In this document: positions 2,448 through 31,817 of the stretch, piece after piece
How the letters are laid out: every line of letters starts with the position of its first letter
Position numbering within the stretch: the first letter of the stretch is position 1
Assembly (NCBI RefSeq): GCF_017876815.1
Contig: NZ_JAGIOS010000002.1
Location: 960,001 to 992,000, forward strand
Length of the DNA: 32,000 nt
From: Sinorhizobium meliloti
GTDB lineage: Bacteria; Pseudomonadota; Alphaproteobacteria; Rhizobiales; Rhizobiaceae
Direction: 5' to 3'
Program-made: the position numbers and the translations under genes
Notes under the pieces: model-generated
The model's input: the letters and a program-made list of their open reading frames with translations, nothing else
The model's database searches: none
What the model was told of the DNA's origin: nothing

Positions 2448-3089
2448 TCAATCAGGCACATGCTTCAGCAGCATCTGTGCGATGGCATAGGCGCGTTTTT
2501 CCAGAAGCACCGGCGTTTCGCAGACATAGGTGAGCGCCTGCGAGCGATCGCGATAAATGCGCTCGTCCCAGTCGATCTGTTCCTCCAGCTTGTCGATACG
2601 GTCGAAATCGGGGCTTTTCTCCCGCGAGAGCTTCGCCATCTCGACGCGCGCGCCTTCGATGCGCGACGAGAGCGCGATCTGGCTGCGGGAATAGCGGGCT
2701 ATCCCGGCGATCAGCCGCTGTCGGGTCTCGGCGATATTGTCGAACACGCCGTAGAAAATGTTGCCGAGAAGTTGACCGTCGGCCTGCTTGTTCCGCTCCA
2801 CGAAAGCCCTGACATGCGCGTCGGCCTCTTCCAGGCTGACCCGGCGAAGCGACAATGCTTCCACGAGATCGGTTGCTTCGGGCGAAAGAGGCGTGCGGGT
2901 CACCGGCGCGGGCCACATCAGGCTCGCCGACAGGTTCTCGACCTTGCGCTGGATACAGGGCCAGTCGGGATCGGAAAAATCCATTGCTCCTGCGATGCCG
3001 GGGGCTTGCGTCAGGCAAAGCGCCAGCCCTAGCGCCAGATTGAGCGGCAAACCGCGCATCCGGCGAAGCGCATGACAGGCGACTCTCAT
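2448..3089 (-). CDS. Secreted hypothetical protein, charged and helix-rich
   Basis: ATG 3087-3089 with GGAGA 8 nt upstream (alternative ATG at 3059). Signal-like MRGLPLNLALGLALCLTQAPGIAGA. Codon bias is good. I recognise no family. Confidence 0.6.
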   Translation of the reverse strand: MRVACHALRRMRGLPLNLALGLALCLTQAPGIAGAMDFSDPDWPCIQRKVENLSASLMWPAPVTRTPLSPEATDLVEALSLRRVSLEEADAHVRAFVERNKQADGQLLGNIFYGVFDNIAETRQRLIAGIARYSRSQIALSSRIEGARVEMAKLSREKSPDFDRIDKLEEQIDWDERIYRDRSQALTYVCETPVLLEKRAYAIAQMLLKHVPD

Positions 3090-5826: not shown

Positions 5827-7632
5827 ATGAAACGACTTCTTACAATGCTTGCCATTATGTCGATAGGCGGCGGTGCACAGGTCGCTTTCGCCAACGATGA
5901 GTTGCAGAAGCTCATCGATGACCCCAATCAATGGGCCATCCAGACCGGCGATTATGCCAACCTGCGCTACTCCAAGCTCGACCAGATCAACAAGGACAAC
6001 GTAGGCAAACTTCAGGTTGCCTGGACCTTCTCGACCGGCGTTCTGCGTGGTCACGAAGGTTCGCCGCTCGTCATCGGCGACCTGATGTACGTCCATACGC
6101 CGTTCCCGAACACGGTCTACGCGCTGGATCTCAGCAAGGATGGCCAGATCGTCTGGAAATACGAGCCGAAGCAGGATCCGAACGTGATCCCGGTGATGTG
6201 TTGCGACACCGTTAATCGCGGCGTGGCCTATGCGGATAACAAGATCTTCCTGCATCAGGCCGATACGACGGTCGTGGCACTCGACGCCAAGACCGGCAAG
6301 GTCATCTGGAGCGTCAAGAACGGCGATGCTACCAAGGGCGAGACGAATACCGCCACCGTCATGCCGGTGAAGGATAAGATTCTCGTCGGCATATCCGGCG
6401 GCGAGTTCGGCGTCCGCGGTCACGTGACGGCCTATTCGATGGCAGACGGGAAGGTCCTGTGGCGTGGTTACTCCATGGGGCCGGACAGCGATACGCTGAT
6501 CGATCCTGAAAAGACTACCCATCTGGGCAAGCCGGTCGGCAAGGACTCCGGCCTCACCACCTGGGAAGGCGATCAGTGGAAGATCGGCGGCGGCACGACC
6601 TGGGGCTGGTACTCCTACGATCCGGAAGAAAATCTGGTATATTACGGAACCGGTAACCCTTCGACCTGGAACCCGACCCAGCGGCCGGGCGACAATCGGT
6701 GGTCGATGACCATCTTCGCGCGTGATGTCGATACCGGCATGGCCAAATGGCTCTATCAGATGACGCCCCATGACGAATGGGACTATGACGGCGTCAACGA
6801 GATGATCCTGACCGAACAGCAGATCGACGGTAAGGACCGCAAGCTGCTGACCCACTTCGACCGGAACGGCTTCGGCTATACGATGGACCGCGTCACTGGC
6901 GAGCTGCTCGTGGCCGAGAAATACGATCCCACGGTCAACTGGGCGACTGAAGTGGTCATGGACCCGAAGTCCGACAAATACGGTCGGCCTCAGGTCGTGG
7001 CACAGTATTCGACCGAGCAAAACGGCGAAGACACCAACACCACCGGCGTCTGCCCGGCGGCACTCGGCACCAAGGACCAGCAGCCTGCGGCCTATTCGCC
7101 TAAGACCGAGCTGTTCTATGTGCCCACCAACCACGTCTGCATGGACTACGAGCCTTTCCGGGTAAGCTACACCGCCGGCCAACCCTATGTCGGGGCCACG
7201 CTTTCGATGTACCCGCCGAAGGACAGCCACGGCGGCATGGGCAATTTCATTGCCTGGGACAACAAGGAAGGCAAGATCAAGTGGTCTCTGCCGGAGCCTT
7301 TCTCGGTCTGGTCCGGCGCTCTGGCGACAGCCGGCGATGTGGTCTTCTACGGAACGCTCGAGGGCTATCTCAAGGCGGTCGACGCGGCAACCGGCAAGGA
7401 GCTCTATCGCTTCAAGACGCCTTCCGGGGTGATCGGCAACGTGATGACCTATGCCCGTGAAGGCAAGCAGTACGTGGCGGTGCTCTCCGGTGTCGGCGGC
7501 TGGGCCGGTATCGGTCTGGCAGCGGGCCTGACCAACCCGACTGAAGGTCTGGGAGCCGTCGGCGGCTACTCGGCCCTCAGCAACTACACCGCACTCGGCG
7601 GCACGCTCACCGTGTTCAAGCTGCCGGAGTAA
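5827..7632 (+). CDS. xoxF: XoxF-type PQQ-dependent methanol/alcohol dehydrogenase (lanthanide-dependent type)
   Basis: ATG 5827 after GAGGAGGA. Signal peptide. Vicinal Cys-Cys (VMCCDT, 6199-6204). WDYDGVN with the extra Asp diagnostic of XoxF (DYD at 6781-6789). Repeated W-motif propeller blades. 601 aa. Confidence 0.93.
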
Positions 7633-7650
7633 GGGGCAAACTTCGCCCGG

Positions 7651-7685
7651 GAGTTGGCGCGGGCTCATAAAGCCCGCGCCAACTC
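7651..7685 (+). promoter_or_regulatory. Perfect 15-bp stem-loop between xoxF and xoxG
   Basis: gagttggcgcgggct (7651-7665), loop cataa, agcccgcgccaactc (7671-7685). The arms are exact reverse complements. No U-tract follows. Confidence 0.6.
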
Positions 7686-7710
7686 ATACCAGCCCCCAAA
7701 AGGACGCAAG

Positions 7711-8241
7711 ATGACCAGATCAAGACCAGCCGTACCGATGATCCTCGCCTTTTTGACGTTTATGGCGAGCGCCGCAGGCGCAGAAGATGCGCCAAAGGAC
7801 AACATCACCGCTGTGCGCGACGAAAACGGGCGCTACTACACCGCCGACGACGTTCCCACTTTCAAGATCGCCGAGGACGGCACGGTCGACTGGCTCACCT
7901 ATTCGGGCTTTCGCCGCTACCACTCGGAATGTCACGTCTGTCATGGCCCGGAGGGCGAGGGGTCGAGCTATGCGCCGGCCTTGAAGACCTCCGCGATCAA
8001 CATGGACTACTACGATTTCGTCGATGTCGTCACGAACGGGCGCAAGAAGGTGAACGCTGCCGAGAACTCGGTGATGCCTGCCTTCGGCGAGAACGTCAAC
8101 GTGATGTGTTATCTCGACGACATCTACGTCTATCTGAAAGCGCGCGGAGCCGATGCGCTGCCGCGGGGACGTCCGGCCAAGAAGGAAGCGAAATCCGATG
8201 CGATCAAGGAAGCTGAAACGGCTTGTCTCGGTCACGAGTAG
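7711..8241 (+). CDS. xoxG: XoxG, cytochrome cL-like electron acceptor of XoxF
   Basis: ATG 7711 after AAAAGGA. Signal peptide MTRSRPAVPMILAFLTFMASAAGA. Heme motif CHVCHG. It sits directly downstream of xoxF. Confidence 0.85.
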   Translation: MTRSRPAVPMILAFLTFMASAAGAEDAPKDNITAVRDENGRYYTADDVPTFKIAEDGTVDWLTYSGFRRYHSECHVCHGPEGEGSSYAPALKTSAINMDYYDFVDVVTNGRKKVNAAENSVMPAFGENVNVMCYLDDIYVYLKARGADALPRGRPAKKEAKSDAIKEAETACLGHE

Positions 8242-9064
8242 CCTCCTGGCAGCCGCCGGCGCTCTCATGGCGGCCGCCGGCTCTCAGCAGGCGGCGGCCC
8301 AGACATCGGATCTTGTTTCGAAGACGGCGTTTCGAGTCTGTGCCGATCCGGCCAATCTGCCGATGTCGGATCGTTCGGGTAAGGGCTACGAGAACAGGAT
8401 CGCCGAACTGATGGCATCCAAGCTCGGTTTGCCGGTGGAGTACACCTGGTTTCCGATGGCGACGGGCTTCGTGCGCAAGACCCTGCAGGCCAATGCCTGC
8501 GACGTGGTCATCGGTTTTGCCCAGGGCGATGAGCTGGTCCTGAACACCAACCATTACTATACATCGTCCTATGTGCTGATCGTTGCCTCGGAAGGTCCCC
8601 TGGGCGGTGTCACGACGCTTGCCGACCCTCTTCTCAAGGACAAGCGGATCGGCATCGTTGCGGGAACGCCGCCGGCGACGCATATGGCGAGAAACGGACT
8701 GCTGCCCAAGGCCAAAGGCTATCATTTGATGGTCGACCGGCGCTACGAGGATCCGGCCGACGACATGCTCGCTGACCTGGAATCCGGCGCCCTCGACGCA
8801 GCCATCCTCTGGGGGCCGATCGGCGGTCCGCTCGTCAAGGGAAGCCACCCGAAGCTGAAGGCGACCCCGCTTCTGTCGGAGACCACGCCGCCAAAGCTCT
8901 TCTACCGCATCACGATGGGCGTGCGGCAAGGCGAGAAGGTCTGGGAGCGCAAGCTCAATTCTCTCATTCGTCGAAATCAGTCCGAGATCAACGCGATCCT
9001 CGCCGATGCCGGCGTGCCGCTCCTGAACGACATGGGAACCGGCCCGCTCGAGGCGCAGCAATGA
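8198..9064 (+). CDS. xoxJ: XoxJ/MxaJ-like periplasmic binding-fold protein
   Basis: ATG 8198 gives a proper signal peptide (MRSRKLKRLVSVTSSLLAAAGALMAAAGSQQAAA). Type II solute-binding-protein-like sequence. Position is canonical after xoxF-xoxG. The start overlaps xoxG by 44 nt. Confidence 0.8.
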   Translation: MRSRKLKRLVSVTSSLLAAAGALMAAAGSQQAAAQTSDLVSKTAFRVCADPANLPMSDRSGKGYENRIAELMASKLGLPVEYTWFPMATGFVRKTLQANACDVVIGFAQGDELVLNTNHYYTSSYVLIVASEGPLGGVTTLADPLLKDKRIGIVAGTPPATHMARNGLLPKAKGYHLMVDRRYEDPADDMLADLESGALDAAILWGPIGGPLVKGSHPKLKATPLLSETTPPKLFYRITMGVRQGEKVWERKLNSLIRRNQSEINAILADAGVPLLNDMGTGPLEAQQ

Positions 9065-9606
9065 CCCGCCTGCGGCTCCATTCGCTGGTCCTGCTCCTGC
9101 TTGCCGCCTTCCCGGCGGCGGCGGCCGAGGAGCCTGCCGGCTACCGCGAGAGCGAGTACCGCGCCGAGGTGCCGGCGACGCTTTCCGGTGCGACGGTCGT
9201 GTCGACCGAAGCTGCCCATGCATTGTGGAAGACCGGTCAGGTCGCTTTCATCGACGTCCTGCCGCGGCCGCCGAAGCCGACCAATCTCCCGGAGGGGACG
9301 GTCTGGAACGAAAAGCCGCGCCTGTCCATTCCATCTGCCCTATGGCTGCCGAATGTCGGCTATGGCCAGCTGGCCGACGCCATGCACGCCTATTTTCGCG
9401 CCGGCCTGGAAAAGGCGACCGGTGGCGACAAGGACCGGCCGGTGCTTTTCTTTTGCCTCGACGGCTGCTGGATGTCCTGGAACGCCGGAAAGCGAGCTCT
9501 GGAGTATGGCTACACACGTGTCTTCTGGTATCCGCAGGGCACCGATGGCTGGACGGCCGCCGGCTACCCCACGGAGCGCATCGACCCGGAGCCCGGCGGC
9601 CGGTGA
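9061..9606 (+). CDS. Secreted rhodanese-like protein with CXXCW motif (PQQ-dependent catabolism-associated CXXCW family)
   Basis: ATGA start/stop overlap with xoxJ (9061-9064). Signal peptide MTRLRLHSLVLLLLAAFPAAAA. Motif CLDGCW at 9454-9471. Confidence 0.8.
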   Translation: MTRLRLHSLVLLLLAAFPAAAAEEPAGYRESEYRAEVPATLSGATVVSTEAAHALWKTGQVAFIDVLPRPPKPTNLPEGTVWNEKPRLSIPSALWLPNVGYGQLADAMHAYFRAGLEKATGGDKDRPVLFFCLDGCWMSWNAGKRALEYGYTRVFWYPQGTDGWTAAGYPTERIDPEPGGR

Positions 9607-9663: not shown

Positions 9664-9722
9664 CTTTCAGCCCAAGGACTTGGTCTGGCTGGATCCCTGT
9701 GACGAGCACAGGCATGAGGAGA
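9664..9722 (+). repeat. Intergenic palindromic repeat, family 2 (RIME/REP-like), copy 1
   Basis: ctttcagcccaaggacttggtctggctggatccctgtgacgagcacaggcatgagga is about 90% identical to the reverse complement of 17835-17892. It contains hairpins ccaag-ga-cttgg and cctgtg-acgag-cacagg. It lies between convergent gene ends. Confidence 0.65.
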
Positions 9723-9777
9723 TCAAACAAGCCGCGGCGGGGATCCCGAACCTCAAAAGGCCTTGATCGGGAATCCT

Positions 9778-10299
9778 TCAGGATTTGAAGAAGTGGTTTT
9801 TCAGGATGTAGCGGATGCCGCGCAGCCAGCTGTCGTCGGTGTTCGAGCGGATGTCGACGGCAAGGCCGCGCAGCATCTCGCCGGAGTCCACGTCGCGCAG
9901 TACGAGCTCCACCGATAGGATAAGGTTGGAGATCTTCCGCACTTCGCCGACCAACACGTAGTCGGCGCCAAGCCGCTCGCCCATAGTCAGGTCGCAGCCG
10001 TTGCAGTCGGCAGGATTGACCGTGCCGGCGAGTTCGGCCGCCACTGGCTCGTTCGTGAGAATGACGAAGCCTTCCTGAACGAAGCGGTCGCGCGCGGCGC
10101 CTTCCATGAGCTCGAGCCGCGCGGTCTCGTCGGCGCGCACTCCGTTATAGGCGCCCTCCGTCGACAGATCGATGAAGGTCATGCCGAGGAATGCTACCTT
10201 GGCGCCCGGCGTGAGCGGCTTGTCCAGCGCGGCGCGCGCGAGCGCCGGCAACAGTGCCAGGACAAGGATGGAGACAAGGACTGTCAGGATGTGCCGCAT
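9778..10299 (-). CDS. Secreted hypothetical protein with CNGC motif (possibly DUF2380/DUF3280-like)
   Basis: ATG 10297-10299. Signal peptide MRHILTVLVSILVLALLPALARA. CxxC pair C99/C102 (codons 10003-10005 and 9994-9996). The family name is recalled only weakly. Confidence 0.65.
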   Translation of the reverse strand: MRHILTVLVSILVLALLPALARAALDKPLTPGAKVAFLGMTFIDLSTEGAYNGVRADETARLELMEGAARDRFVQEGFVILTNEPVAAELAGTVNPADCNGCDLTMGERLGADYVLVGEVRKISNLILSVELVLRDVDSGEMLRGLAVDIRSNTDDSWLRGIRYILKNHFFKS

Positions 10300-10425
10300 G
10301 AAATTCAGCCTAGCACACGCATGTCGCTAAACTACGCTCCTTAAGTATCGGTTTTGCGACCCATACTGCGCTGTTAGTCTCCATTTCCGAGGGAGTGTCA
10401 GGAGGATTGGGAGGTCGTTCCGGCA

Positions 10426-11613
10426 ATGCCTAACCTAAAGCTTTTGCTTGCCGTTTTCTGGGCGACGGTGCTGCTCACGTCTCCCTTGCCGGCGGCGGAG
10501 GTGAAGACGGCTGTGCTGCGGATCGATCGTGTCGTCGGTCCGCCGATCTCGCGGCTCGATGCGCCGCCCGCCGACCTGGGCTTTGCCGGCGCCATGCTGG
10601 GCAACGAGGACAACCGGACCACCGGCGCTTTCACCGGCATGGACTACACCGTGAAAACGCAGGCGGTTGCGCCGGAAGAGGCAGTGGCGGCGCTCGATGG
10701 GCTGAAGGCGGAAGGCATCGGGCTCATCGCGGTGATCGCCGAAGGCGACATACTGAAGGCGCTCTCCGACAAGGCCGGACCGGAAGTTCTGCTTTTCAAT
10801 GCGGGCGCTCGCGACGACGGGCTGCGCGATGCCGACTGCCGGGCCAATGTGCTGCACGTCTCGCCGAGCCGTTCGATGCTCAGCGACAGCATCGTTCAGT
10901 TTCTCATGTGGAAGAAATGGCAGCGTATCCTGCTGATCCACGGCTCTCATCCCGAAGACAAGCTGCTTGCCGACAGCTATCGCAAATCGGCCGCCAAGTT
11001 CGGCGCTGAGATCGTCGAGGAGCGGGAGTTCGTCGACACCGGCGGCAGCCGGCGCACGGATACCGGTCATGTCATGGTGCAAAAGCAAATTCCCGTCTTC
11101 ACCCAGGAGGCCGAGGAATACGACGTCATCGTCGCGGCCGACGAGGCGGGCGTTTTCGCGCCCTATCTGCCCTATCACAGCTGGGACCCGAGGCCGGTTG
11201 CCGGCTCTGCGGGCCTGCGTCCGGTCTCCTGGCATCCTGCTCACGAGGCCTGGGGTGCGACCCAGTTCCAGCGCCGCTTCGAAAAACTCACCGGCCGCTA
11301 CATGCGCGAGGAAGATTACCAGGCATGGCTTGCGATGCGGGTGATCGGGGAGGCGGTGACGCGGTCCGGCAAGGCCGATCCCGGAACCGTGCGGGCCTAC
11401 GCCCTTTCCAAGGATTTCGAACTGGCTGCGTTCAAGGGCCAGAAATTGACCTTCCGCACCTGGAACGGGCAGTTGCGGCAGCCGGTTCTTTTGACCGAGG
11501 GCCGGGTGACCGTTTCCGTATCGCCGCAGGACGGCTACCTGCACCAGCATTCGCCGCTCGACACGCTGGGTATCGATGCGCCCGAGACAGCCTGTCACGC
11601 ATTTGGAGGATAA
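10426..11613 (+). CDS. Periplasmic type I (LivK-like) solute-binding protein, PQQ-alcohol-dehydrogenase-system type
   Basis: ATG 10426 after GGGAGG. Signal peptide. Length and alternating alpha/beta pattern fit branched-chain amino-acid-type binding proteins. First gene of the operon. Confidence 0.78.
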   Translation: MPNLKLLLAVFWATVLLTSPLPAAEVKTAVLRIDRVVGPPISRLDAPPADLGFAGAMLGNEDNRTTGAFTGMDYTVKTQAVAPEEAVAALDGLKAEGIGLIAVIAEGDILKALSDKAGPEVLLFNAGARDDGLRDADCRANVLHVSPSRSMLSDSIVQFLMWKKWQRILLIHGSHPEDKLLADSYRKSAAKFGAEIVEEREFVDTGGSRRTDTGHVMVQKQIPVFTQEAEEYDVIVAADEAGVFAPYLPYHSWDPRPVAGSAGLRPVSWHPAHEAWGATQFQRRFEKLTGRYMREEDYQAWLAMRVIGEAVTRSGKADPGTVRAYALSKDFELAAFKGQKLTFRTWNGQLRQPVLLTEGRVTVSVSPQDGYLHQHSPLDTLGIDAPETACHAFGG

Positions 11614-11614
11614 G

Positions 11615-12589
11615 ATGCTCAGACCCGCACTGGCGATTGTGTCTGCCGTTCTGCTGTCTGCCGGTTCGGCCGAGGCCAACAAAGTCTTCGTGAGCAACGA
11701 GCGCGGCAACAACATAACCGTGCTCGACAGTGAAAGCTGGGAAGTGATCGCCACGTTTCCGGCCGGAAACAGGCCGCGCGGCATCACCATCAGTCCGGAC
11801 GGCAAGGAACTCTACGTCTGCGCGTCGGATGACGACACTGTTCGGGTTTTCGATCCCGAGACCTATAAGGAACTGCACACGTTGCCGTCAGGCCCGGATC
11901 CGGAGCTTTTCGCCCTCGATCCTTCGGGCAATCCGCTCTACATCGCCAATGAGGACGACAATCTCGTGACCGTCGTGGACGTCAAGACGCGCCAGGTACT
12001 GGCCGAGGTGCCCGTCGGGGTCGAGCCGGAAGGCGTCGCGGTCAGCCCGGATGCAAAGACGATCATCAATACGTCCGAAACCACCAATATGGCACATTTC
12101 ATCGACGCCTCGACCTACAAAATCGTGCACAACGTGCTGGTGGACCAGCGGCCGCGCTATGCGGAATTCACGGCAGACGGCAAGAAGCTCTACGTCAGCG
12201 CCGAGATCGGCGGCACGGTTTCGGTGATCGACGTGTCGGCGGCCGAGCCGAAAATCACCAAGAAGATCACTTTCGAAGTGCCGGGCGTTCTGCCGGAATG
12301 GCTGCAGCCGGTCGGCGTCAAGGCCACCAAGGACGGCTCGCGCATCTTCGTGGCGCTTGGACCCGCAAACCGCGTCGCAATAATCGACGGGAAGACCGAC
12401 GAGGTGCTCGATTACCTCCTTGTCGGACAGCGGGTCTGGCAGATGGCATTCACGCCGGGCGAGGAATTCCTGATCACCACCAACGGCAATTCCAATGATG
12501 TCAGCATCATCGACGTGAAGGCGGAAAAGGTGATCCGCTCGGTTCAGGTGGGCGAGCAGCCCTGGGGGGTCGTGGTCGCGCCGGATTGA
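11615..12589 (+). CDS. Secreted YVTN-repeat beta-propeller protein (PQQ-dependent catabolism-associated propeller type)
   Basis: ATG 11615 lies 1 nt after the upstream stop, with GGAGGA at 11605-11610. Signal peptide MLRPALAIVSAVLLSAGSAEA. About 40-aa repeats (..P.GI.ISPDGK.LYV.., ..PEGVAVSPDAK..). Confidence 0.85.
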   Translation: MLRPALAIVSAVLLSAGSAEANKVFVSNERGNNITVLDSESWEVIATFPAGNRPRGITISPDGKELYVCASDDDTVRVFDPETYKELHTLPSGPDPELFALDPSGNPLYIANEDDNLVTVVDVKTRQVLAEVPVGVEPEGVAVSPDAKTIINTSETTNMAHFIDASTYKIVHNVLVDQRPRYAEFTADGKKLYVSAEIGGTVSVIDVSAAEPKITKKITFEVPGVLPEWLQPVGVKATKDGSRIFVALGPANRVAIIDGKTDEVLDYLLVGQRVWQMAFTPGEEFLITTNGNSNDVSIIDVKAEKVIRSVQVGEQPWGVVVAPD

Positions 12590-12628
12590 ACGGTGCAATT
12601 TGCAAATATCAACGGGGAGGAGTTCATC

Positions 12629-13072
12629 GTGCATAAATCGGTTCTTGCGGCGCTCGCCGCGCTCTCTCTGGCGAGCCCGGCCGTTGCCGCGCCGCTTTGC
12701 AGCGACCTCGGCTTTGCCGGCCTGCTTGCCAAATGCAACCGCGGCGAGCCGATCGAGATCACGCTCGCGTCCGGAAAGCCGCTCGGCAAGGGTGCCATTA
12801 CGCTTCAGTCCGGCGCATACTACGAAATGCAGATCACGGCGGACGGATCGGCGGAGCTGGCGATTACCGGTGCGCCGTTCTTTCGTGCGATCTGGATGAA
12901 CGAGATCGTTGTCAACGGCATAGAAGTTCGCCCAATGGCGATCGACAGTCTGGAATTCGACGAGGCCGGGACGGCAACCCTGTCCTTCATCGCCGTCAAG
13001 CCGGGCAGCTATGAGGTGAAGATTCCGGAAACCTCCGGCGACAGCCAGAAAGTATCGATTTCCATACAGTGA
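12629..13072 (+). CDS. Small secreted beta-rich hypothetical protein (147 aa)
   Basis: GTG 12629 is preceded by GGGGAGGAG (12614-12622). Signal peptide VHKSVLAALAALSLASPAVA. A Cys pair sits near the mature N-terminus. The track start 12593 lacks an RBS. Confidence 0.6.
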   Translation: MHKSVLAALAALSLASPAVAAPLCSDLGFAGLLAKCNRGEPIEITLASGKPLGKGAITLQSGAYYEMQITADGSAELAITGAPFFRAIWMNEIVVNGIEVRPMAIDSLEFDEAGTATLSFIAVKPGSYEVKIPETSGDSQKVSISIQ

Positions 13073-13126
13073 AACGGTCGCCCGAGAAGTCCGCGGGACA
13101 GGAGCGGCGGTTCCGGGGAGGAAGAA

Positions 13127-14098
13127 ATGAAGACTTTGAGACTGATCGTGGCCGCTTGCCTGTTCGCATTCGGACCGGCAGCGGCCGCAGCCGAGGAGCT
13201 GCCGCAATTGCGGGCGGCCATGCTGGCATCGGGAACCGTCACCTGGGAAATATCCACCATCAAGACTCATGAATTCGACCGCAAGAACGGTTTTGAGCTG
13301 ACGGTCCAGGACTATGCGGACAACGGCGCGACGCGCGTCGCCTTCGAGGGCGGCGAGGCCGACACCATGGTGGCCGACTGGATTTGGGTGGCCAACCAGC
13401 GTGCCTCCGGCAAGGACTATGTTTTCATCCCCTATTCGCGGGCAGTCGGCGGCCTGATGGTCAAGGACGACAGCGGCATCAAGGCGCTGCCGGATCTTGC
13501 CGGCAAGAAGATCGGCATTGCCGGAGGTCCGCTCGACAAGAGCTGGCTGATCCTGCGCGCCTATGCCAGGCAGCAGCATGACATGGACCTTGCAGCCGAA
13601 ACCGAGCAGGTGTTCGGCGCTCCGCCTTTGATCTTCAAGTCGGCGCTTTCGGGCGAGACGGCGGGTACGATCAATTTCTGGCACTTTCTCGCGAAGATGA
13701 GGGCCAAGGGCATGCATGAACTGGTCTCCGTCTCGGATGCTGCGGCGGCGCTCAAGCTCGATCCCGATACGCCGCTCCTCGGTTACGTGTTGAAGGGCGA
13801 ATATGCCGCGACCCATCCGGAAATCGTGAAGGGGCTTTACAAGGCCTCGCGCGCGGCCAAGGATCTGCTGAGCGAGAACGACGAGGTGTGGGAGGAATTG
13901 CGGGACAAGATGAATGCGGCCGACGACGCTGAATTCATTGCCCTGCGCGACGGCTATCGCGCCGGCATTCCGAGCGGCAAGCCGATCGACGAGGCGGCCG
14001 CCGACCGGTTTCTGCGGCTGATGGCGGAACTTGGTGGAGAAGAGCTCGTCGGCAAGGCGACAAGCCTGCCCAGTGGATTGTTCCTGCACCTTGAATAA
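13127..14098 (+). CDS. Periplasmic solute-binding protein, NMT1/SsuA/TauA-like
   Basis: ATG 13127 after GGGGAGGAAG. Signal peptide MKTLRLIVAACLFAFGPAAAAA. Sequence pattern resembles sulfonate/nitrate/bicarbonate-family binding proteins. Confidence 0.75.
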   Translation: MKTLRLIVAACLFAFGPAAAAAEELPQLRAAMLASGTVTWEISTIKTHEFDRKNGFELTVQDYADNGATRVAFEGGEADTMVADWIWVANQRASGKDYVFIPYSRAVGGLMVKDDSGIKALPDLAGKKIGIAGGPLDKSWLILRAYARQQHDMDLAAETEQVFGAPPLIFKSALSGETAGTINFWHFLAKMRAKGMHELVSVSDAAAALKLDPDTPLLGYVLKGEYAATHPEIVKGLYKASRAAKDLLSENDEVWEELRDKMNAADDAEFIALRDGYRAGIPSGKPIDEAAADRFLRLMAELGGEELVGKATSLPSGLFLHLE

Positions 14099-14852
14099 GA
14101 CGCTGCAACATCCTGCCTTGGTGCGCGCATTGTCGCTGGGGCTGCTGTTGCTCTTGTGGATAGCGGCCGCCGGCTTCACGGACGACGCGTCGGTCCTGCC
14201 GCAGCCCTGGGCGCTCTGGGAACCCTTCGTGCAAGCGGCCAGTTCCGGCGCCTTGCCCTATCACCTGGGAATGACGCTCTGGCGCGTGATCTGCGCATTC
14301 GTGCCGGCCATGGTGATCGGCGTGGCGGTCGGCTTTCTGATGGGACGCGTTGCCGCGGTCGATCGATGGCTCGACCCATGGCTCGTCGTGTTTCTGAACC
14401 TGCCGGCACTCGTGCTCATCGTGTTGTGCTACATCTGGATCGGCCTCAACGAGACGGCCGCCATTACCGCGGTGGTGCTCAACAAGATCCCGAATGTCGC
14501 AACGCTTCTGCGCGAGGGCGCGAGGGCGCTCGACCCGGACCTCGACTCCATGGCGGCGGTTTACCGCATGCGTCCGCTGGCGCGGCTGCGACACGTGATC
14601 ATGCCGCAGCTTGCGCCCTTCATTGCCGCTGCCGCCCGGTCCGGCATCGCGGTGATATGGAAGATCGTGCTGGTGGTCGAGTTTCTCGGCCGCTCCAGCG
14701 GGATCGGATTCCAGATCCATTTCTATTTCCAGCTTTTCAACGTCGCCATGGTGCTTGTCTATGCGCTTTCCTTCATCGGCGTGATGCTGCTGGTGGAGGC
14801 TTTCTTCCTGCAGCCGGCCGAACGCCGGGTGCGGCGCTGGAGGACGGCGTGA
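14091..14852 (+). CDS. ABC importer permease (SsuC/TauC-like, binding-protein-dependent family)
   Basis: Six predicted TM segments. EAA-like loop (LREGARALDPDLDSMAAVYRMRPLARLRHVIMPQL). I chose TTG 14091, which overlaps the upstream stop. TTG 14031 or GTG 14034 are alternatives. Confidence 0.78.
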   Translation: MNKTLQHPALVRALSLGLLLLLWIAAAGFTDDASVLPQPWALWEPFVQAASSGALPYHLGMTLWRVICAFVPAMVIGVAVGFLMGRVAAVDRWLDPWLVVFLNLPALVLIVLCYIWIGLNETAAITAVVLNKIPNVATLLREGARALDPDLDSMAAVYRMRPLARLRHVIMPQLAPFIAAAARSGIAVIWKIVLVVEFLGRSSGIGFQIHFYFQLFNVAMVLVYALSFIGVMLLVEAFFLQPAERRVRRWRTA

Positions 14853-15472
14853 TCAGGATCGATGTCAGACGAAAGGCATTCGGCGAAGAGGAGGTCCTGC
14901 GCGACATCCGCTTCGAGATGGAGATCGGCGAGACGGTCGCCATTCTCGGTCCGTCGGGCGTCGGCAAGTCGACGCTGCTTCGTCTCGTCGCCGGCATCGA
15001 CACCGCTTTCGAGGGCGAGATCACCCGGCCGGAAAACATTGCCATGGTTTTCCAGGAGCCTGTCCTTCTGCCGTGGAGAAGCGTCATCGAGAACCTGACA
15101 TTGGTGCATCCGCAACTCGGGTCGCAAGCTGCACTCTCAGCGCTGGAGCGGACCGGCATTGCCGACAGGGCCGGGCTCTTTCCCGGCCAGCTGTCGCTCG
15201 GCCAGCAGCGGCGGCTGGCGCTGGCGCGGGCCTTTGCCGGCCGGCCGGAGCTTCTCGTCCTGGACGAACCCTATGTGTCGCTCGATCCTGCGATGGCCGA
15301 GGACATGCTGGCCCTGACCGAGGCGCTGATCGCGGAAACGGCCCCTGCCGTCATTCTCGTGACCCATTCGGAGGCCGAGGCGCGGCGGCTCGCCCGGCGC
15401 TGCCTCCGCCTTGCCGGGAAACCGGCGACGATTATAGAAGAGTTTGCGGCGGCGCCGGGAAGGGCATCATGA
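14849..15472 (+). CDS. ABC transporter ATP-binding protein (SsuB/TauB-like)
   Basis: GTGA overlap with the permease stop (14849-14852). Walker A GPSGVGKST, signature LSLGQQRR, Walker B LLVLDEP. The track ORF 14156-15472 has a spurious N-terminal extension. Confidence 0.85.
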   Translation: MIRIDVRRKAFGEEEVLRDIRFEMEIGETVAILGPSGVGKSTLLRLVAGIDTAFEGEITRPENIAMVFQEPVLLPWRSVIENLTLVHPQLGSQAALSALERTGIADRAGLFPGQLSLGQQRRLALARAFAGRPELLVLDEPYVSLDPAMAEDMLALTEALIAETAPAVILVTHSEAEARRLARRCLRLAGKPATIIEEFAAAPGRAS

Positions 15473-16197
15473 TCGGGCTCGAGATCAGCCATGTCAGCTA
15501 CAGCTACGGAAAGTCCCGGGCGCTGGACGATGTCAGCTTCTCCGTCAGGACCGGCCGCTTCTGCGCACTGCTCGGGCCGAACGGCGCCGGCAAATCGACG
15601 CTCTTCGCTCTTCTGACGCGGCTGCTCGCGACAAGGGCCGGCACGATCGGCGTGGCCGGCTTCGACATTGCGCGCGAGCCGCGTGCGGCGCTCGCACGCA
15701 TCGGGGTGGTGTTCCAGCAGCCTACCCTCGATCTCGACATGTCGGTGCGCCGCAACCTGCGCTATTTCGCCGGACTTCATGGCTTGTCGGGGCGGCAGGC
15801 CGCTGTGGCGATCGAAGCGGCGCTGACGCAGCTCGGCATGGCCGAGCGGGCCGACGAGCAGGTGCGTGCGCTCAACGGCGGTCACCGGCGGCGCATGGAG
15901 ATCGCGCGGGCCTTGATCCACAAGCCGCAGATATTGCTGCTCGACGAGCCGACGGTCGGACTGGACGCCGCCTCCCGGCAGGCGATCACCGACCATGTGC
16001 ATCTGCTTGCCGAGAGCGGGCTTGCGGTCCTCTGGGCGACGCATCTGGTCGACGAGATCCGGCCGGAGGACCAGGTAGTCGTTCTGCATCGCGGCAAGGT
16101 GCTGAGCGACGGTACCGCCGCGGAACTCGCGGGCGGGCAGGGGCTCGCCAAGGCGTTCCTGTCGATGACGGCCGAGGGCCGGGAGGTTCCGGCATGA
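15469..16197 (+). CDS. ABC-2-type transporter ATP-binding protein (PQQ-alcohol-dehydrogenase-system / PedA2-like)
   Basis: ATGA overlap with the preceding stop (15469-15472). Walker A GPNGAGKST, signature LNGGHRRR, Walker B ILLLDEP. Confidence 0.88.
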   Translation: MIGLEISHVSYSYGKSRALDDVSFSVRTGRFCALLGPNGAGKSTLFALLTRLLATRAGTIGVAGFDIAREPRAALARIGVVFQQPTLDLDMSVRRNLRYFAGLHGLSGRQAAVAIEAALTQLGMAERADEQVRALNGGHRRRMEIARALIHKPQILLLDEPTVGLDAASRQAITDHVHLLAESGLAVLWATHLVDEIRPEDQVVVLHRGKVLSDGTAAELAGGQGLAKAFLSMTAEGREVPA

Positions 16198-16985
16198 AGG
16201 CATGGCTGGTCGCGCTTTCCGCAATCGTCACCCGCGAAAATCTGCGCTTCGTCCGCCAGCGCGGGCGGTTTCTGGCGGCACTCGTGCGCCCGCTCGTTTG
16301 GCTGATCGTCTTTGCCGCCGGCTTCCGCGCGGCGCTCGGCGTGTCGATCATCCCGCCCTACCAGACCTATATTACATATGAAGTCTATATCCTTCCGGGG
16401 CTCTGCGGCATGATCCAGCTCTTCAACGGCATGCAATCGTCGCTGGCGCTGGTCTATGACCAGGAGATGGGATCCATGCGTCTCCTGCTGACCTCGCCCC
16501 TGCCGCGCTGGTGGCTGCTGTTCTCGAAGCTTCTCGCCGGTGTGATAGTCTCCATCCTGCAGGTGGCAGTGTTCCTGGCCATCGCTGCGCTGACCGGCAT
16601 CACCGTGCCGCCCGTCGGCTATGTCGCGGTGCTGCCCGCCCTGGTCATCAGCGGATTGATGCTCGGGGCCTTCGGCCTGCTGATATCCTCGACCGTCCGG
16701 CAACTCGAGAACTTCGCCGGCGTCATGAACTTCGTGATCTTTCCGATGTTCTTCCTTTCCTCGGCACTTTATCCGCTGTGGAAGATGGCCGAGAGTTCGC
16801 CGCTTCTGCGCGACATCTGTGCTCTCAATCCGTTTACCTACGCGGTGGAACTGATACGTTTCGCGCTTTACGGCGAACTCAACCTGACGGCTCTCGCCTG
16901 GGTCGGCGCGTGCTTCGTCCTGTTCATGCTCGCTGCCCTTTGGGGCTATAATCCAGCCCGCGCCATGCTCCGGTCGAAAGGCTGA
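16194..16985 (+). CDS. ABC-2-type transporter permease (PedC-like)
   Basis: ATGA overlap (16194-16197). Six hydrophobic segments. The ABC-2 exporter-type layout has no EAA loop. Confidence 0.85.
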   Translation: MKAWLVALSAIVTRENLRFVRQRGRFLAALVRPLVWLIVFAAGFRAALGVSIIPPYQTYITYEVYILPGLCGMIQLFNGMQSSLALVYDQEMGSMRLLLTSPLPRWWLLFSKLLAGVIVSILQVAVFLAIAALTGITVPPVGYVAVLPALVISGLMLGAFGLLISSTVRQLENFAGVMNFVIFPMFFLSSALYPLWKMAESSPLLRDICALNPFTYAVELIRFALYGELNLTALAWVGACFVLFMLAALWGYNPARAMLRSKG

Positions 16986-17105
16986 GCCCTGCCCTTATTC
17001 GGATGTTCGGCGCCGAAAACCGACACTTTCCGCTATATTGCCGCGAGCCGCATTTGCACTGATCCTGCTTGTGAACGAAGGACGTTCAAAGCCGAGGAGG
17101 AACCA

Positions 17106-17675
17106 ATGCTCAAGCTACATCCGTCCATCGACAACGGCTTCCCGCCTGCCAGTCCGGGCTTTGCCGGCGGTACGCTGAAATGCAAATGCGCCTCAAATCC
17201 GGTGACCGTGCGGATCGGCTCGCAGACGGCGCACAACCACGCCTGCGGCTGCACCAAGTGCTGGAAACCCGAGGGTGCCATCTTCGCGCAGATCGCCGTC
17301 GTCGGCCGCGACAACGTGAACGTCACCTCAGGTGCGGAAAAACTGCAGGTCGTCGATCCGAGCGCGACGATCCAGCGTTACGCCTGCCGCGATTGCGGCA
17401 CGCACATGTATGGCAGGATCGAAAACACCAAGCATCCCTTCTACGGCCTCGACTTCGTCCATACCGAACTCAGCGACGAAACGGGCTGGTCGCCGCCCGA
17501 ATTCGCAGCCTTCGTTTCTTCGATCATCGAAAGCGGTGTGAACCCGGAGAGCATGCCGGAGATACGCGCAAGGCTGACCGAGCTCGGCCTGCAGCCCTAT
17601 GATTGTCTGTCTCCGCCGCTGATGGACGCGATCGCCACGCATATCGCCAAACAGACCGGCGCCCTGCCGGCCTGA
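17106..17675 (+). CDS. gfa: S-(hydroxymethyl)glutathione synthase (glutathione-dependent formaldehyde-activating enzyme)
   Basis: ATG 17106 after GAGGAGG (17094-17100). Cys clusters CKC..., CGCTKCW and [11 protein letters not shown] are typical of Gfa zinc sites. 189 aa. Confidence 0.92.
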
Positions 17676-17728
17676 CCCTTTGCACATTGGGGACACCGCG
17701 CCACCAGCCGACCGTCTCCTCCCTCGGA

Positions 17729-17787
17729 CCCCGCCCGTCGCCTCTTGTTGGAGAGGCATTTCGACGGGCGGGGGCTGAGGCGTTTTT
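17729..17787 (+). terminator. Nested GC-rich stem-loop downstream of gfa, followed by T5
   Basis: Outer 12-bp perfect stem ccccgcccgtcg (17729-17740) / cgacgggcgggg (17762-17773). Inner hairpin cctct/agagg. TTTTT lies at 17783-17787, 9 nt after the stem, so spacing is not canonical. Confidence 0.5.
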
Positions 17788-18595: not shown

Positions 18596-18598
18596 GGC

Positions 18599-28688: not shown

Positions 28689-29633
28689 TTGACGAGGATC
28701 GGTAAGGCATCAGGTATCCCGGTGAACAAAACGTCCGATCTTCGCATCATCGTCTTGGGGGCCGCCGCCGGCGGCGGTCTCCCGCAATGGAATTGCGGCT
28801 GTCGCAACTGCGCGATGGCGCGCGATCCGGCCTCCGGCCTCAGACCGCAAACCCAGTCGTCGCTTGCGGTGAGCCTCGACGGCGAGAGCTGGACCGTCTT
28901 CAACGCCTCCCCGGACATCCGCCAGCAGGTTCAAGACAATTGCCCGCTTCAGCCACGCCGGCTGCGCCACAGCCCCATCGAGAGTGTGGTGCTGACGAAT
29001 GGCGACATCGACCATCTGGCAGGGCTTCTCGTTTTGCGGGAGAAGCAGGCATTCACCCTATTTTCGACCGGCGCAGTCGGCCGGATCGTCTCCGACAATC
29101 CGGTCTTCCAGGTCCTCGATCCGGAACTGGTGTCAAGAAAGACCATCGAAATCGATGAGGCTTTCTCTCCGCTGTCGGGCCTCGATGCACGGCTCTTCGC
29201 CGTTCCGGGCAAGGTGCCCCTCTTTCTCGAGGACGGCGAGCCCGATCTGGGCATCGAGGGCGAGCACACGGTCGGGCTCGAACTGGAGGCCGCCGGCAGG
29301 CGGGTCTATTATGTTCCTGGCTGCGCCATGATGACGGATAGCCTCGCCGCGCGCCTGCGCGATGCCGATGCTGTCTTCTTCGACGGCACGCTCTTTTCCG
29401 ATGACGAGATGATCCTGACCGGGACCGGCCGCAAGACAGGCCGTCGCATGGGCCACATGCCGATCGACGGGGAAGGTGGCAGCCTCGACGCGCTCGATCT
29501 CTTGAACATTCGCAGAAAGATCTATGTCCATATCAACAACACCAACCCGATCTGGCGGGCCGGCAGCGAGCGAGAGCGCGTCGAGGCCCGCGGTTTCGAG
29601 ATCGGCTATGACGGCATGGAGGTCCGGCTGTGA
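28689..29633 (+). CDS. pqqB: PqqB (metallo-beta-lactamase-fold PQQ biosynthesis protein)
   Basis: Characteristic N-terminus IIVLGAAAGGGLPQWNCGCRNC. Start is TTG 28689 (track) or GTG 28722. The stop overlaps the pqqC GTG (GTGA at 29630-29633). Confidence 0.9.
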   Translation: MTRIGKASGIPVNKTSDLRIIVLGAAAGGGLPQWNCGCRNCAMARDPASGLRPQTQSSLAVSLDGESWTVFNASPDIRQQVQDNCPLQPRRLRHSPIESVVLTNGDIDHLAGLLVLREKQAFTLFSTGAVGRIVSDNPVFQVLDPELVSRKTIEIDEAFSPLSGLDARLFAVPGKVPLFLEDGEPDLGIEGEHTVGLELEAAGRRVYYVPGCAMMTDSLAARLRDADAVFFDGTLFSDDEMILTGTGRKTGRRMGHMPIDGEGGSLDALDLLNIRRKIYVHINNTNPIWRAGSERERVEARGFEIGYDGMEVRL

Positions 29634-30400
29634 CGACGGCAACTGACAGACAAGCTTTCCATGCCCGCCTGCTGGAGATCGGCAAGGAGCGCTACCATGA
29701 CAAGCATCCGTTTCATGCGATGCTCCATGGCGGCGGTTGCACGACGACGCAGGTCCGCGCCTGGGTGATCAACCGCTATTATTACCAGAGCCGCATCCCC
29801 ATGAAGGATGCGGCCTTTCTGTCGCGTTGCGACGACCCGGATATGCGCCGGGCCTGGCGCTCCCGCATCGAAGATCACGACGGCGGCGTCGAGGAGGGCG
29901 GCGGCATCCGGCGCTGGCTGCGTCTCGCCGAGGCCGTGGGACTAGATCCAGCCTATGTCGGCTCCGCAAGGGGCGTACTGCCGTCGACCCGGTTTGCCGT
30001 GGACGCCTATGTTTCCTTTGTGCGTGAGAAGCCGCTGCTCGAGGCGGTGGCCTCCTCGCTGACGGAGCTTTTTGCGCCGAAGATCCACTCGGAGCGCATT
30101 GCCGGGCTGCTGGAGCACTACGCCTTCGCCGATGACGCCGCACTCGCCTATTTCCGCCAGAGGCTGGCGGAGGCGCCCCGGGATGTCGAGTTCGGCCTCG
30201 CCTATGTCCTTGACCATGCCGACACGCGGGAAAAGCAGGACGCGGCCGCTCAGGCACTCACCTTCAAGACGGATGTTCTCTGGGCCCAGCTCGATGCACT
30301 TTATTCGGCCTATGTCACGCCGGGGCGCATTCCGCCGGGGGCCTGGGACGGCCGGGAGGGGGTGATCCGCGAGCCGAGAGCGCGGGAGGCCGCGGAATGA
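29630..30400 (+). CDS. pqqC: Pyrroloquinoline-quinone synthase PqqC
   Basis: HPFH..., INRYYYQSRIPMKDAA and other PqqC-typical segments. 256 aa. Confidence 0.93.
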   Translation: MTTATDRQAFHARLLEIGKERYHDKHPFHAMLHGGGCTTTQVRAWVINRYYYQSRIPMKDAAFLSRCDDPDMRRAWRSRIEDHDGGVEEGGGIRRWLRLAEAVGLDPAYVGSARGVLPSTRFAVDAYVSFVREKPLLEAVASSLTELFAPKIHSERIAGLLEHYAFADDAALAYFRQRLAEAPRDVEFGLAYVLDHADTREKQDAAAQALTFKTDVLWAQLDALYSAYVTPGRIPPGAWDGREGVIREPRAREAAE

Positions 30401-30693
30401 CGGCCGACGCGCCCGTGATTTCAGGATCGAGCGTCGTCAAGCTGGCACGAGGGGTCCGGCTGCATGAGGATCCGGTCCGCGGCCAGACAGTGCTGCTGGC
30501 TCCGGAGCGCGCCATGGCCGTGGACGACATCGCCGTCGCCATCGTTCAGGCTCTCGATGGCGAACGGAACCTCGACCGGATCGCCGCCGACTTTGCCGAG
30601 AAGTTCGACGCCCCCGTCGAAGAGATCGCCGAGGATGTCAGGACTTTCGTCCAGGAGCTCTCCGTCCGCCGCATGCTGGAGATCGTCCAATGA
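30397..30693 (+). CDS. pqqD: PqqD, peptide chaperone (RRE domain)
   Basis: ATGA overlap with pqqC. 98 aa. Position and size are canonical. C-terminal ...FVQELSVRRMLEIV is typical. Confidence 0.9.
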   Translation: MTADAPVISGSSVVKLARGVRLHEDPVRGQTVLLAPERAMAVDDIAVAIVQALDGERNLDRIAADFAEKFDAPVEEIAEDVRTFVQELSVRRMLEIVQ

Positions 30694-31817
30694 GCGACAC
30701 TATCGCCCGGCCAGCCGAAACTGCCCGCACCTTGCCGCGCATTCTTCCGCCGATGGCCATGCTGGCGGAACTGACGCATCGCTGCCCGCTCGCCTGCCCC
30801 TATTGCTCCAATCCGATCGCCCTGACGCAAGCCAAGGAAGAACTATCGACAGAGGAGTGGACAGGCGTCTTCGCGCAAGCCGCCGATCTCGGCGTCCTGC
30901 ATCTGCACCTGTCCGGCGGGGAGCCTGCCGCGCGTCGGGACCTTGTCGAAGTGACGCAGGCGGCGAGTTCGCTCGGCCTTTACACCAACCTGATCACCTC
31001 CGGCGTGGGACTGACGGAGGCGAGGATGAACAGCCTCGCCGATGCCGGACTCGACCATATCCAACTTTCCATCCAGGGCGTTTCTCCCGAAAGCGCCGAT
31101 CGGATCGGCGGGTACAAAGGCGGTTATGAACGGAAAATGGCGGTTGCAGGCTGGGCGGCCGATGCCGCTATACCGCTGACGCTGAACGCCGTCTGCCACA
31201 GGCAGAACATGGGCGAGATCGATGAGATGATTGAGCTGGCTATCCGGCTGAAGGCGCGCCGCATCGAAGTCGCCACCGTGCAGTTTCACGGTTGGGCCGA
31301 GCGCAACAAAGAGGTTCTCATGCCGACCCGCGAGCAGGTCGAATGCGCTACGCGAAGCGTCGCCGAAGCACGCGAGAAATATCAGGGCATATTGGTGATC
31401 GACTATGTGCCCGCCGATTATTATTCGAAGTATCCGAAGGCCTGCATGGGCGGCTGGGGCCGCGTCGGCTTGAACATCACGCCGTCCGGGCGGGTGCTTC
31501 CATGCCATGCCGCCGAAACCATTCCGAGCCTCTCTTTCGAGAACGTGCGCGAAAACTCGCTTTCCAGCATCTGGTACGAGAGCAATGCGTTCAATGCCTA
31601 TCGCGGCGAGGACTGGATGCCGGAGCTCTGTCGGAGCTGCGAGCGCAAGAAGGTGGATTTCGGCGGCTGCCGCTGCCAGGCGATGGCGCTTGCCGGCGAC
31701 GCGAGCGCAACGGACCCGGTTTGCATCCGGTCTCCGCTTCGCGATCGCCTGACGCTCGAAGTGGAACAGCTTTCGGCACCGTCGGTCGTGCCGATGAATT
31801 ATCGCGGCCGGGCATAA
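30690..31817 (+). CDS. pqqE: PqqE, radical SAM/SPASM PqqA cross-linking enzyme
   Basis: ATGA overlap with pqqD. CPLACPYC (CX3CX2C) radical SAM cluster. C-terminal Cys-rich SPASM region (CRSCERKKVDFGGCRCQ). Confidence 0.93.
   Translation: MSDTIARPAETARTLPRILPPMAMLAELTHRCPLACPYCSNPIALTQAKEELSTEEWTGVFAQAADLGVLHLHLSGGEPAARRDLVEVTQAASSLGLYTNLITSGVGLTEARMNSLADAGLDHIQLSIQGVSPESADRIGGYKGGYERKMAVAGWAADAAIPLTLNAVCHRQNMGEIDEMIELAIRLKARRIEVATVQFHGWAERNKEVLMPTREQVECATRSVAEAREKYQGILVIDYVPADYYSKYPKACMGGWGRVGLNITPSGRVLPCHAAETIPSLSFENVRENSLSSIWYESNAFNAYRGEDWMPELCRSCERKKVDFGGCRCQAMALAGDASATDPVCIRSPLRDRLTLEVEQLSAPSVVPMNYRGRA

Follow-up and report, generated by a model that had tools for sequence, protein, structure and literature searches.

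In Methylorubrum extorquens, lutA, lutE and lutF mutants accumulate lanthanum (La) in the periplasm and do not grow on methanol with La (PMC7391723). In Pseudomonas putida, loss of pedA1A2BC raises the La requirement approximately 100-fold, an effect that depends specifically on La concentration and not on pedH transcription (PMC6839425). More recently, growth of Sinorhizobium meliloti 2011 on methanol was found to require La and to proceed through XoxF and the Calvin cycle (PMC12628762, 2025). That study assigned lutA to b20178, lutB to b20179, lutE to b20184, lutF to b20185 and lutG to b20169 (PMC12628762, Table S3), and found no lutH in the genome. It does not mention b20180-b20183, neither 'lutC' nor 'pqqT' appears anywhere in its supplement, and the paper is not one of those in which PqqT is named. 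Here we analyze the operon to which these genes belong within a 32,000-nt stretch of S. meliloti DNA (contig NZ_JAGIOS010000002.1, positions 960,001 to 992,000; hereafter the window), on which an earlier note had been made from the sequence alone. The operon consists of eight open reading frames on the + strand of the pSymB replicon at 10426-16985 (SMb20178-SMb20185; locus tags from published tables). The xoxF gene lies 2.8 kb upstream of it, and its product carries the D-Y-D motif of lanthanide-type enzymes, in line with the earlier note.

For the other cofactor of XoxF, pyrroloquinoline quinone (PQQ), a periplasmic binding protein has been described. The structure of PqqT from M. extorquens AM1 with PQQ (PDB 9B1U) shows contacts from T41, K142, N143, Y188 and backbone amides, with the backbone contacts provided by L37, A42 and G112 (PMC11331073). 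A dissociation constant of ~50 nM for PQQ has been reported for the M. extorquens protein only, PQQ-loaded PqqT weakly binds La3+ and Ca2+ (PMC11331073), and recapture of lost cofactor has been proposed as its role; we take these properties from papers later than the original 2019 description. As we describe below, the S. meliloti operon combines relatives of the Lut/Ped genes with relatives of the PqqT system. We consider it likely that it encodes two ATP-binding cassette (ABC) systems serving both cofactors, lanthanide and PQQ, of the adjacent XoxF, and that both are probably supplied from one transcript. The gene structure, membership in families, homology, conservation of the key PQQ contacts and linkage to PQQ dehydrogenases are the observations from which we infer substrates, transport direction and co-transcription in S. 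meliloti.

Eight closely spaced genes with overlapping reading frames

The eight coupled genes and their junctions, re-read from the sequence, are as the earlier note had described them, and annotation of a second pSymB record by the Prokaryotic Genome Annotation Pipeline (PGAP; CP130050, 99.3% identity) contains the same eight coding sequences with the same starts, including a TTG. Bases 9000-17800 of the window match pSymB of strain SM11 with 100% identity, and 41 more plasmid records match them at 99% identity or higher, those listed being all S. meliloti pSymB.

The first three genes encode a LutA/PedA1-type periplasmic binding protein (SMb20178, 10426..11613; TIGR03863, Pfam Peripla_BP_6), a LutB/PedA2-type YVTN beta-propeller (SMb20179, 11615..12589; TIGR03866) and a secreted, LutC-like protein whose modelled fold is cupredoxin-like and which has no copper ligands (SMb20180, 12629..13072; similarity to LutC). 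These are followed by a PqqT-type periplasmic binding protein and candidate PQQ binder (SMb20181, 13127..14098; PDB 9B1U/9B1V, Pfam NMT1), the type I importer permease that would partner it (SMb20182, 14091..14852; Pfam BPD_transp_1) and the ATPase of this putative importer (SMb20183, 14849..15472; Pfam ABC_tran). The last two genes encode a LutE/PedB-type ABC-2 ATPase (SMb20184, 15469..16197; TIGR03864, Pfam ABC_tran) and a LutF/PedC-type ABC-2 permease (SMb20185, 16194..16985; TIGR03861, Pfam ABC2_membrane). The domain calls of the earlier note agree with these families, and the signal peptides of the first four products were assigned by eye from the translations.

The first three junctions are short gaps of 1 nt (SMb20178 stop 11613, SMb20179 ATG 11615), 39 nt (SMb20179 stop 12589, SMb20180 GTG 12629, the mechanical reading frame beginning at GTG 12593) and 54 nt (SMb20180 stop 13072, SMb20181 ATG 13127). 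At the other four, reading frames overlap: by 8 nt between the TTG start of SMb20182 (14091) and the stop of SMb20181 (14098), and by four-nucleotide GTGA (14849-14852) and ATGA (15469-15472 and 16194-16197) sequences at the three junctions that follow. Because overlapping stop and start codons couple translation, both transport systems would be made together. Shine-Dalgarno-like GGAGG motifs precede SMb20178, SMb20179, SMb20180, SMb20181, SMb20183 and SMb20185. The overlap of the TTG start with the upstream stop codon is also kept in Rhodobacteraceae (L002), Roseibium (L115) and an Ensifer-like locus (L006; L numbers are our labels for the loci compared). A terminator scan returned 8 sites against 5.4 ± 2.9 expected, all of them within genes or 5′ of SMb20178 and none intergenic. 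No RNA family was matched in an Rfam scan of the whole window, and we therefore assign no riboswitch 5′ of SMb20178.

Lut/Ped-type genes at both ends of the operon

Four of the products score above the curated cut-offs of Lut/Ped families: SMb20178 against TIGR03863 (PQQ_ABC_bind; 499.9 bits, cut-off 413.6), SMb20179 against TIGR03866 (530.1 bits, cut-off 287.3), SMb20184 against TIGR03864 (355.8 bits, cut-off 302.25) and SMb20185 against TIGR03861 (phenyl_ABC_PedC; 420.7 bits, cut-off 241.35). By these scores, all four are members of the Lut/Ped families. A phmmer search of the PDB with SMb20178 gave no match.

As reference lut genes, we used two lanM-carrying metagenome contigs of the Methylorubrum group, L091 and L097. 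The LanM query with which they were retrieved was validated by a 94% match. Further validation came from the LanD reading frame on L091, which has E75 and E78 as in PMC11551332, and from a look-up of exact-sequence clusters, which tied L091 proteins to C5B158 (LutC position) and C5B162 (LutG position) of M. extorquens AM1, where LanD is C5B159 (PMC11551332). The gene order is lutB(end)-lutC-lanD-lutE-lutF-lutG-TonB receptor-lanM on L091 and DUF3280(-)-lutA-lutB-lutC-lutE-lutF-lutG-lanM on L097. Against these references, SMb20178 is 43% identical to L097 LutA, SMb20179 is 61% identical to L097 LutB and 66% identical to the incomplete LutB on L091, and SMb20184 and SMb20185 are 52.5% and 62% identical to L091 LutE and LutF, respectively.

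Orthology to the lut genes is thus drawn from direct comparison, and that to the ped genes from shared curated families and published Ped-Lut identities rather than from the P. putida sequences themselves. With four curated cut-offs passed and 43-66% identity to lut genes, these results support the suggestion of the earlier note that the operon is a counterpart of the Ped/Lut genes for lanthanide or cofactor supply. Our assignments of lutA, lutB, lutE, lutF and also lutG, made independently, agree with those of PMC12628762. The link between lut genes and S. meliloti is less new than had been assumed, as these five genes and La-dependent methanol growth were already reported there.

The direction of transport by SMb20184 and SMb20185 deserves separate consideration. 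The secondary best matches of the pair are DrrA/DrrB, NodI/NodJ and other ABC-2 exporters, and in repeated cases PqqT-type genes adjoin lutE/F or are fused with them. Together with the fact that we know of no PQQ exporter, these observations would suit a pair that delivers PQQ, or a chelator of metals, to the periplasm and forms, with a PqqT-type importer, a cycle of PQQ export and recapture. Such a cycle appears improbable to us. Export would not be expected from the periplasmic La accumulation and lack of growth with La of the M. extorquens lutE and lutF mutants (PMC7391723), nor from the La-concentration-specific phenotype in P. putida, in which pedH transcription is not involved (PMC6839425). 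A dedicated binding protein, LutA, as the product of the first gene is also typical of importers. We therefore favor lanthanide import as the function of the Lut-type pair.

A PqqT-type importer between lutC and lutE

SMb20181 matches the structures of PqqT (PDB 9B1U/9B1V) over its full length (residues 29-321 on 6-299) with E 7.9e-61 and 39.7% identity, and the next-best solved structure is reached only at E 3.5e-4. Among the PQQ contacts, T41, K142, L37 and G112 are identical in SMb20181 and invariant in 45 aligned family members. The whole branch to which SMb20181 belongs differs from PqqT by N143S, Y188F and I222L, all of them conservative changes. A genome scan with the PqqT sequence recovered 80 Methylobacterium/Methylorubrum loci, and the M. 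extorquens group (L010) has the order pqqT-permease-ATPase-xoxF1-xoxG-xoxJ. SMb20182 is 52% identical to the permease encoded directly 3′ of pqqT in this group, and SMb20183 is 43% identical to the ATPase encoded after that permease. By homology, SMb20181-SMb20183 are the counterpart of the whole PqqT transporter, and SMb20181 is predicted to bind periplasmic PQQ.

The genomic context of these genes provides a second line of evidence. In 13 of the 13 taxa examined, which form a survey of contexts and not a census, PqqT-like genes lie at most 10 kb from a gene for a PQQ-dependent dehydrogenase. In Azospirillum (L118), the PqqT-type triad stands beside a PQQ alcohol dehydrogenase with pedF, with no lut genes near. 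Because the triad tracks PQQ enzymes and not lanthanide genes, PQQ is independently supported as its ligand. At L114 (8001-11770), a PqqT-like protein with 65% identity to SMb20181 is encoded with a permease and an ATPase beside a soluble glucose/sorbosone dehydrogenase (PF07995), also a PQQ enzyme; no lut genes occur within 8 kb of this triad.

The earlier note had called this transporter a sulfonate/nitrate-type importer of unknown substrate, a label that gives way to homology with the PqqT system. We rejected a sulfonate/nitrate importer on curated cut-offs, with SMb20181 scoring 27.3 bits against SsuA (TIGR01728, cut-off 163.5) and 24.1 bits against TauA (TIGR01729, cut-off 304.25). More broadly, SMb20181-SMb20183 could carry some solute other than PQQ (a sulfonate, nitrate, a compound of the thiamine-precursor type or a lanthanide chelate), with the similarity to PqqT reflecting shared ancestry only. 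The Pfam match to NMT1, the weak matches to SsuA, TauA, SsuC and NrtB, the ~40% identity to PqqT with its three changed positions, the organism's own PQQ synthesis and the weak binding of La3+ and Ca2+ by PQQ-loaded PqqT (PMC11331073) are all compatible with this explanation. We nonetheless judge it unlikely, as the SsuA and TauA scores are so far below their cut-offs, PqqT is by far the best solved structure, T41 and K142, at the centre of the PQQ site, do not vary, and the genes track three PQQ enzyme types, including at loci without lut genes. PQQ thus remains our preferred ligand for this importer.

The fused operon is widespread in Alphaproteobacteria

The exact eight-gene order is found beside xoxFGJ-CXXCW and a DUF3280 gene in Rhodobacteraceae (L002-L004), in Roseibium (L115), where fghA and gfa also occupy the same places, and in the Ensifer-like L006. 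Rhodospirillum (L005) has the same operon order but lacks lutC and the DUF3280 gene. With at least four genera in three orders, conservation of the eight-gene order is far beyond chance. The interleaving of an importer within a Ped-like set, which the earlier note had presented as a distinguishing feature, is therefore real but less novel than proposed, as the order is widespread in Alphaproteobacteria.

Other genomes hold the same parts in other arrangements. Rhizobium leguminosarum has lutABC-EF-G, then pqqT-permease-ATPase and then xoxF, and Microvirga has lutAB-xoxFGJ, lutGFE in reverse orientation and then pqqT-permease-ATPase. In Phaeobacter, Gemmobacter and Shinella, lutABCEF lies beside an ethanol-type PQQ dehydrogenase together with a PqqT-like binding protein and an ATPase. 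At these three loci, the gene for the PqqT-like binding protein is followed directly by that for the ATPase, with no permease gene (L009 12664-14277, L116 6896-8535 and L117 6899-8525). These three clusters are pedF-linked, and a gene for a sel1/TPR protein and lutF/lutE adjoin the PqqT-like pair. We dropped one further candidate, LutA/LutB-like genes near pqqT in Methylobacterium gregans (L050), as the intervening genes were unresolved.

These comparisons bear on whether the eight genes form one functional unit at all or are two unrelated transporters packed together on pSymB. Neither a promoter nor a terminator can be assigned, and the two systems lie apart or on different replicons in several genomes, such as Azospirillum. 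Against independent transporters stand the four junctions that overlap by 4 or 8 nt, the order kept across Sinorhizobium, Rhodobacteraceae, Roseibium and Rhodospirillum with the TTG overlap conserved as well, and the other arrangements, in which at most ~5 kb separates the two systems from each other and from a PQQ dehydrogenase. We regard chance packing as very improbable and treat the eight genes as a single unit.

Synteny between Sinorhizobium and Roseibium (L115) extends over fghA-xoxFGJ-CXXCW-DUF3280-eight genes-gfa (window 4396-17675). Protein identities of this block to Rhodobacteraceae (L002) are 63-86%, with LutB at 86% and XoxF at 85%, which is high for different orders. High identity across orders is compatible with lateral transfer of the module from fghA to gfa.

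A proposed supply of both cofactors to XoxF

We propose that the first system would comprise the LutA-like SMb20178, the LutB-like SMb20179, the LutC-like SMb20180 and the LutE/LutF-like ABC-2 pair, SMb20184 and SMb20185. LutAEF of M. extorquens and PedA1A2BC of P. putida suggest, by analogy, that it would move a lanthanide or lanthanide chelate from the periplasm to the cytoplasm. The second system, encoded between lutC and lutE, would comprise the PqqT-type binding protein SMb20181 with its own type I permease SMb20182 and ATPase SMb20183. SMb20181 would capture free periplasmic PQQ and pass it to the permease and ATPase for uptake or recapture.

Several points weigh against this proposal. 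SMb20181 is only ~40% identical to PqqT and has changes at three contact positions (N143S, Y188F and I222L), and the PqqT literature after the original 2019 description documents binding, not transport. S. meliloti has pqqB, pqqC and pqqE 12 kb away and so might not need PQQ import. The DrrAB-like ABC-2 architecture of LutE/F usually denotes an exporter. No homologue of a TonB-dependent receptor (LutH), LanM or LanD was found in the window by tblastn at E<=0.01, as the earlier note had stated for the receptor and lanmodulin. A sigma-70 promoter scan of the window gave none usable for the eight-gene operon, so that gene spacing is the basis on which we propose co-transcription. Finally, we found no mutant or assay of the eight S. 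meliloti genes in the literature searched.

Searched by tag, the SMb locus tags appear in the literature in omics tables only. Co-variation with the SMb20178 protein is reported for SMb20170-74 and for the gfa and cbb proteins (PMC12542648). Among the papers searched that name PqqT, none places it inside a lut operon, and we found nothing joining xoxF with an NMT1 ABC transporter. The homology-based assignments of b20180-b20183 and the wide occurrence of the fused operon in Alphaproteobacteria are new here. All components belong to known families, and the operon is a variant of known systems rather than a new kind.

Together, these findings give candidate roles to four S. meliloti genes without a place in the published lut annotation, SMb20180 as a lutC-like gene and SMb20181-83 as a PqqT-type PQQ importer. 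They also suggest that many Alphaproteobacteria have their uptake genes for the two XoxF cofactors fused in one operon, which would be co-transcribed. S. meliloti is amenable to genetics and needs lanthanum for growth on methanol, which makes it a convenient host for questions of PqqT transport and of LutB and LutC function. The current picture of lanthanide biology is unchanged by these results.

The LutC-like protein lacks a copper site

SMb20180 matched no Pfam or NCBIfam family. Its own family comprises 978 matches, with ~70% identity between Rhizobiaceae and Rhodobacterales. Compared with LutC of M. extorquens AM1 (C5B158), it is 39% identical over a 74-aa core (E 3e-18), and its family profile aligns to LutC over 124 columns with an hhalign probability of 99.1%. 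On this evidence SMb20180 is a LutC homologue; the earlier note had correctly described it as a small secreted protein, and the comparison with LutC now supplies its identity.

The best of five AlphaFold (AF2) models of SMb20180 has a predicted local distance difference test (pLDDT) score of 84 and the other four score lower, so that the model is confident in one run. In Foldseek, cupredoxin domains rank highest for this model, namely those of laccase, nitrite reductase and AcoP (probability 1.0), with template modelling scores of 0.49-0.55 normalised to SMb20180 and, for AcoP, 0.54-0.60 normalised to the AcoP chain. The modelled fold resembles a cupredoxin-like beta-sandwich, and sources label M. 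extorquens LutC 'cupredoxin-like'; the family profile had no match in the PDB. There is no type-1 copper site, because the mature protein has no His. It has two Cys (C24 and C36), both within an N-terminal loop; other LutC branches do not have them. We ruled out a blue-copper (true cupredoxin) function, as the His/Cys/His/Met type-1 ligands are missing. Identity with LanD was also ruled out, LanD being a 6.8 kDa three-helix bundle and SMb20180 a 147-aa beta-sandwich.

E76, R86, W89, E99, E109 and D111 are among the residues invariant over all LutC branches. The LutC-like proteins of R. leguminosarum (L007 10107-10589), Phaeobacter (L009 10122-10574) and Shinella (L117 10583-11041) carry a poly-aspartate run, DNDDDD. 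It sits N-terminally, directly after the signal peptide, at the place where the Sinorhizobium/Rhodobacteraceae branch has the Cys24...Cys36 loop.

Deletion of lutC in M. extorquens causes only a small defect (PMC7391723). As a speculative extension to which we give little weight, LutC could be a so far overlooked lanthanide-binding chaperone that replaces LanD/LanM in organisms without them, and lanthanide and PQQ handling in the periplasm could be physically or functionally coupled. We raise this because PqqT-type genes are repeatedly fused or adjacent to lutC/lutE/lutF, because some clusters of the ethanol dehydrogenase type carry a PqqT-like binding protein and ATPase without a permease of their own, and because the LutC fold, without a copper site, keeps the invariant carboxylates E76, E99, E109 and D111.

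Neighboring genes

The presumed client of the operon is encoded in the xoxF-xoxG-xoxJ-CXXCW cluster at 5827..9606 (+), which matches TIGR03075 (787 bits), TIGR03874, TIGR03871 and TIGR03865 and whose coding limits are those of PGAP. A terminator-like hairpin with a T-rich tail lies at 9643-9657 (+), 37 nt past the stop codon of the CXXCW gene, which suggests that xoxFGJ-CXXCW is transcribed separately from the eight-gene operon. Upstream genes also include glutathione-dependent formaldehyde genes.

Between the CXXCW gene and the operon, and divergent from SMb20178, is a gene for a DUF3280 secreted protein (9778..10299, -; PF11684, E 4.7e-50). A DUF3280 gene is likewise divergent from lutA in Rhodobacteraceae (L002-L004), in Roseibium (L115) and on the LanM-bearing, Methylobacteriaceae-like L097. 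Although outside the lut cluster as named, it has the look of a conserved partner of lutA that has gone unrecognised.

The window also encodes a LutG-like exported protein (SMb20169, 2448..3089, -), recognized by its similarity to LutG of M. extorquens AM1 (C5B162; 35-37% identity, 35% over 211 aa, E 2e-35). This lutG is on the strand opposite to the operon and 7 kb upstream of it; elsewhere, lutG is found directly 3′ of lutF.

Downstream of the operon are gfa (SMb20186), the cbb (Calvin cycle) operon and then, 12 kb away, pqqB, pqqC and pqqE (28689..31817, +; TIGR02108, TIGR02111 and TIGR02109, above cut-offs), with pqqD presumably between pqqC and pqqE. As these genes and SMb20181-SMb20183 share a replicon, PQQ synthesis and a putative PQQ importer are both encoded on pSymB.

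Near the start of the window, flanking the region for methanol oxidation, are genes for a SoxYZ-like carrier (275-1087, -; TIGR04557) and a SoxH-like zinc hydrolase (1222-2319, +; TIGR04559), both of the 'quinoprotein relay system'. Their relatives also occur in Rhodobacteraceae and Azospirillum loci. A 566-aa reading frame with a TTG start at 17603-19303 (+) has no family match and overlaps thioredoxin-family and rpe genes on the minus strand; it is most likely a spurious high-GC reading frame.

Comparison with known systems

The closest likeness is to the lut cluster of M. extorquens AM1 (lutA-H and lanM; META1p1778-1786), with which the operon shares homologues of LutA, LutB, LutC, LutE and LutF, encoded in the same relative order. 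A LutG homologue in the window, the xoxF neighborhood and a divergent DUF3280 gene, as on L097, add to this likeness. Unlike the AM1 cluster, the window has no LanD (LutD), no LutH TonB-dependent receptor and no LanM, and its lutG is 7 kb away on the other strand. Between lutC and lutE, lanD is replaced by the three genes of a PqqT-type importer.

PedA1A2BC of P. putida KT2440 belongs to the same four families (TIGR03863, TIGR03866, TIGR03864 and TIGR03861) and likewise adjoins a lanthanide-dependent PQQ alcohol dehydrogenase. It differs in being a four-gene operon without a LutC-like gene or a PqqT-type importer (PMC6839425). Its client enzyme is PedH, of the ethanol type, whereas the presumed client in S. 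meliloti is XoxF.

With the PqqT system of M. extorquens (9B1U), SMb20181-SMb20183 share full-length similarity of the binding protein, the Thr and Lys contacts, a homologous permease and ATPase, and an adjoining xoxF. The binding proteins are ~40% identical, with Ser, Phe and Leu in S. meliloti at N143, Y188 and I222. In Methylorubrum, pqqT lies 5′ of xoxF1, outside the lut cluster, and the M. extorquens triad is a separate three-gene unit, whereas the S. meliloti triad sits inside the lut operon. Finally, lutABEFG of Bradyrhizobium sp. USDA 3456 occupy five consecutive locus numbers (PMC12628762), while in S. meliloti lutG stands apart from the other lut genes.

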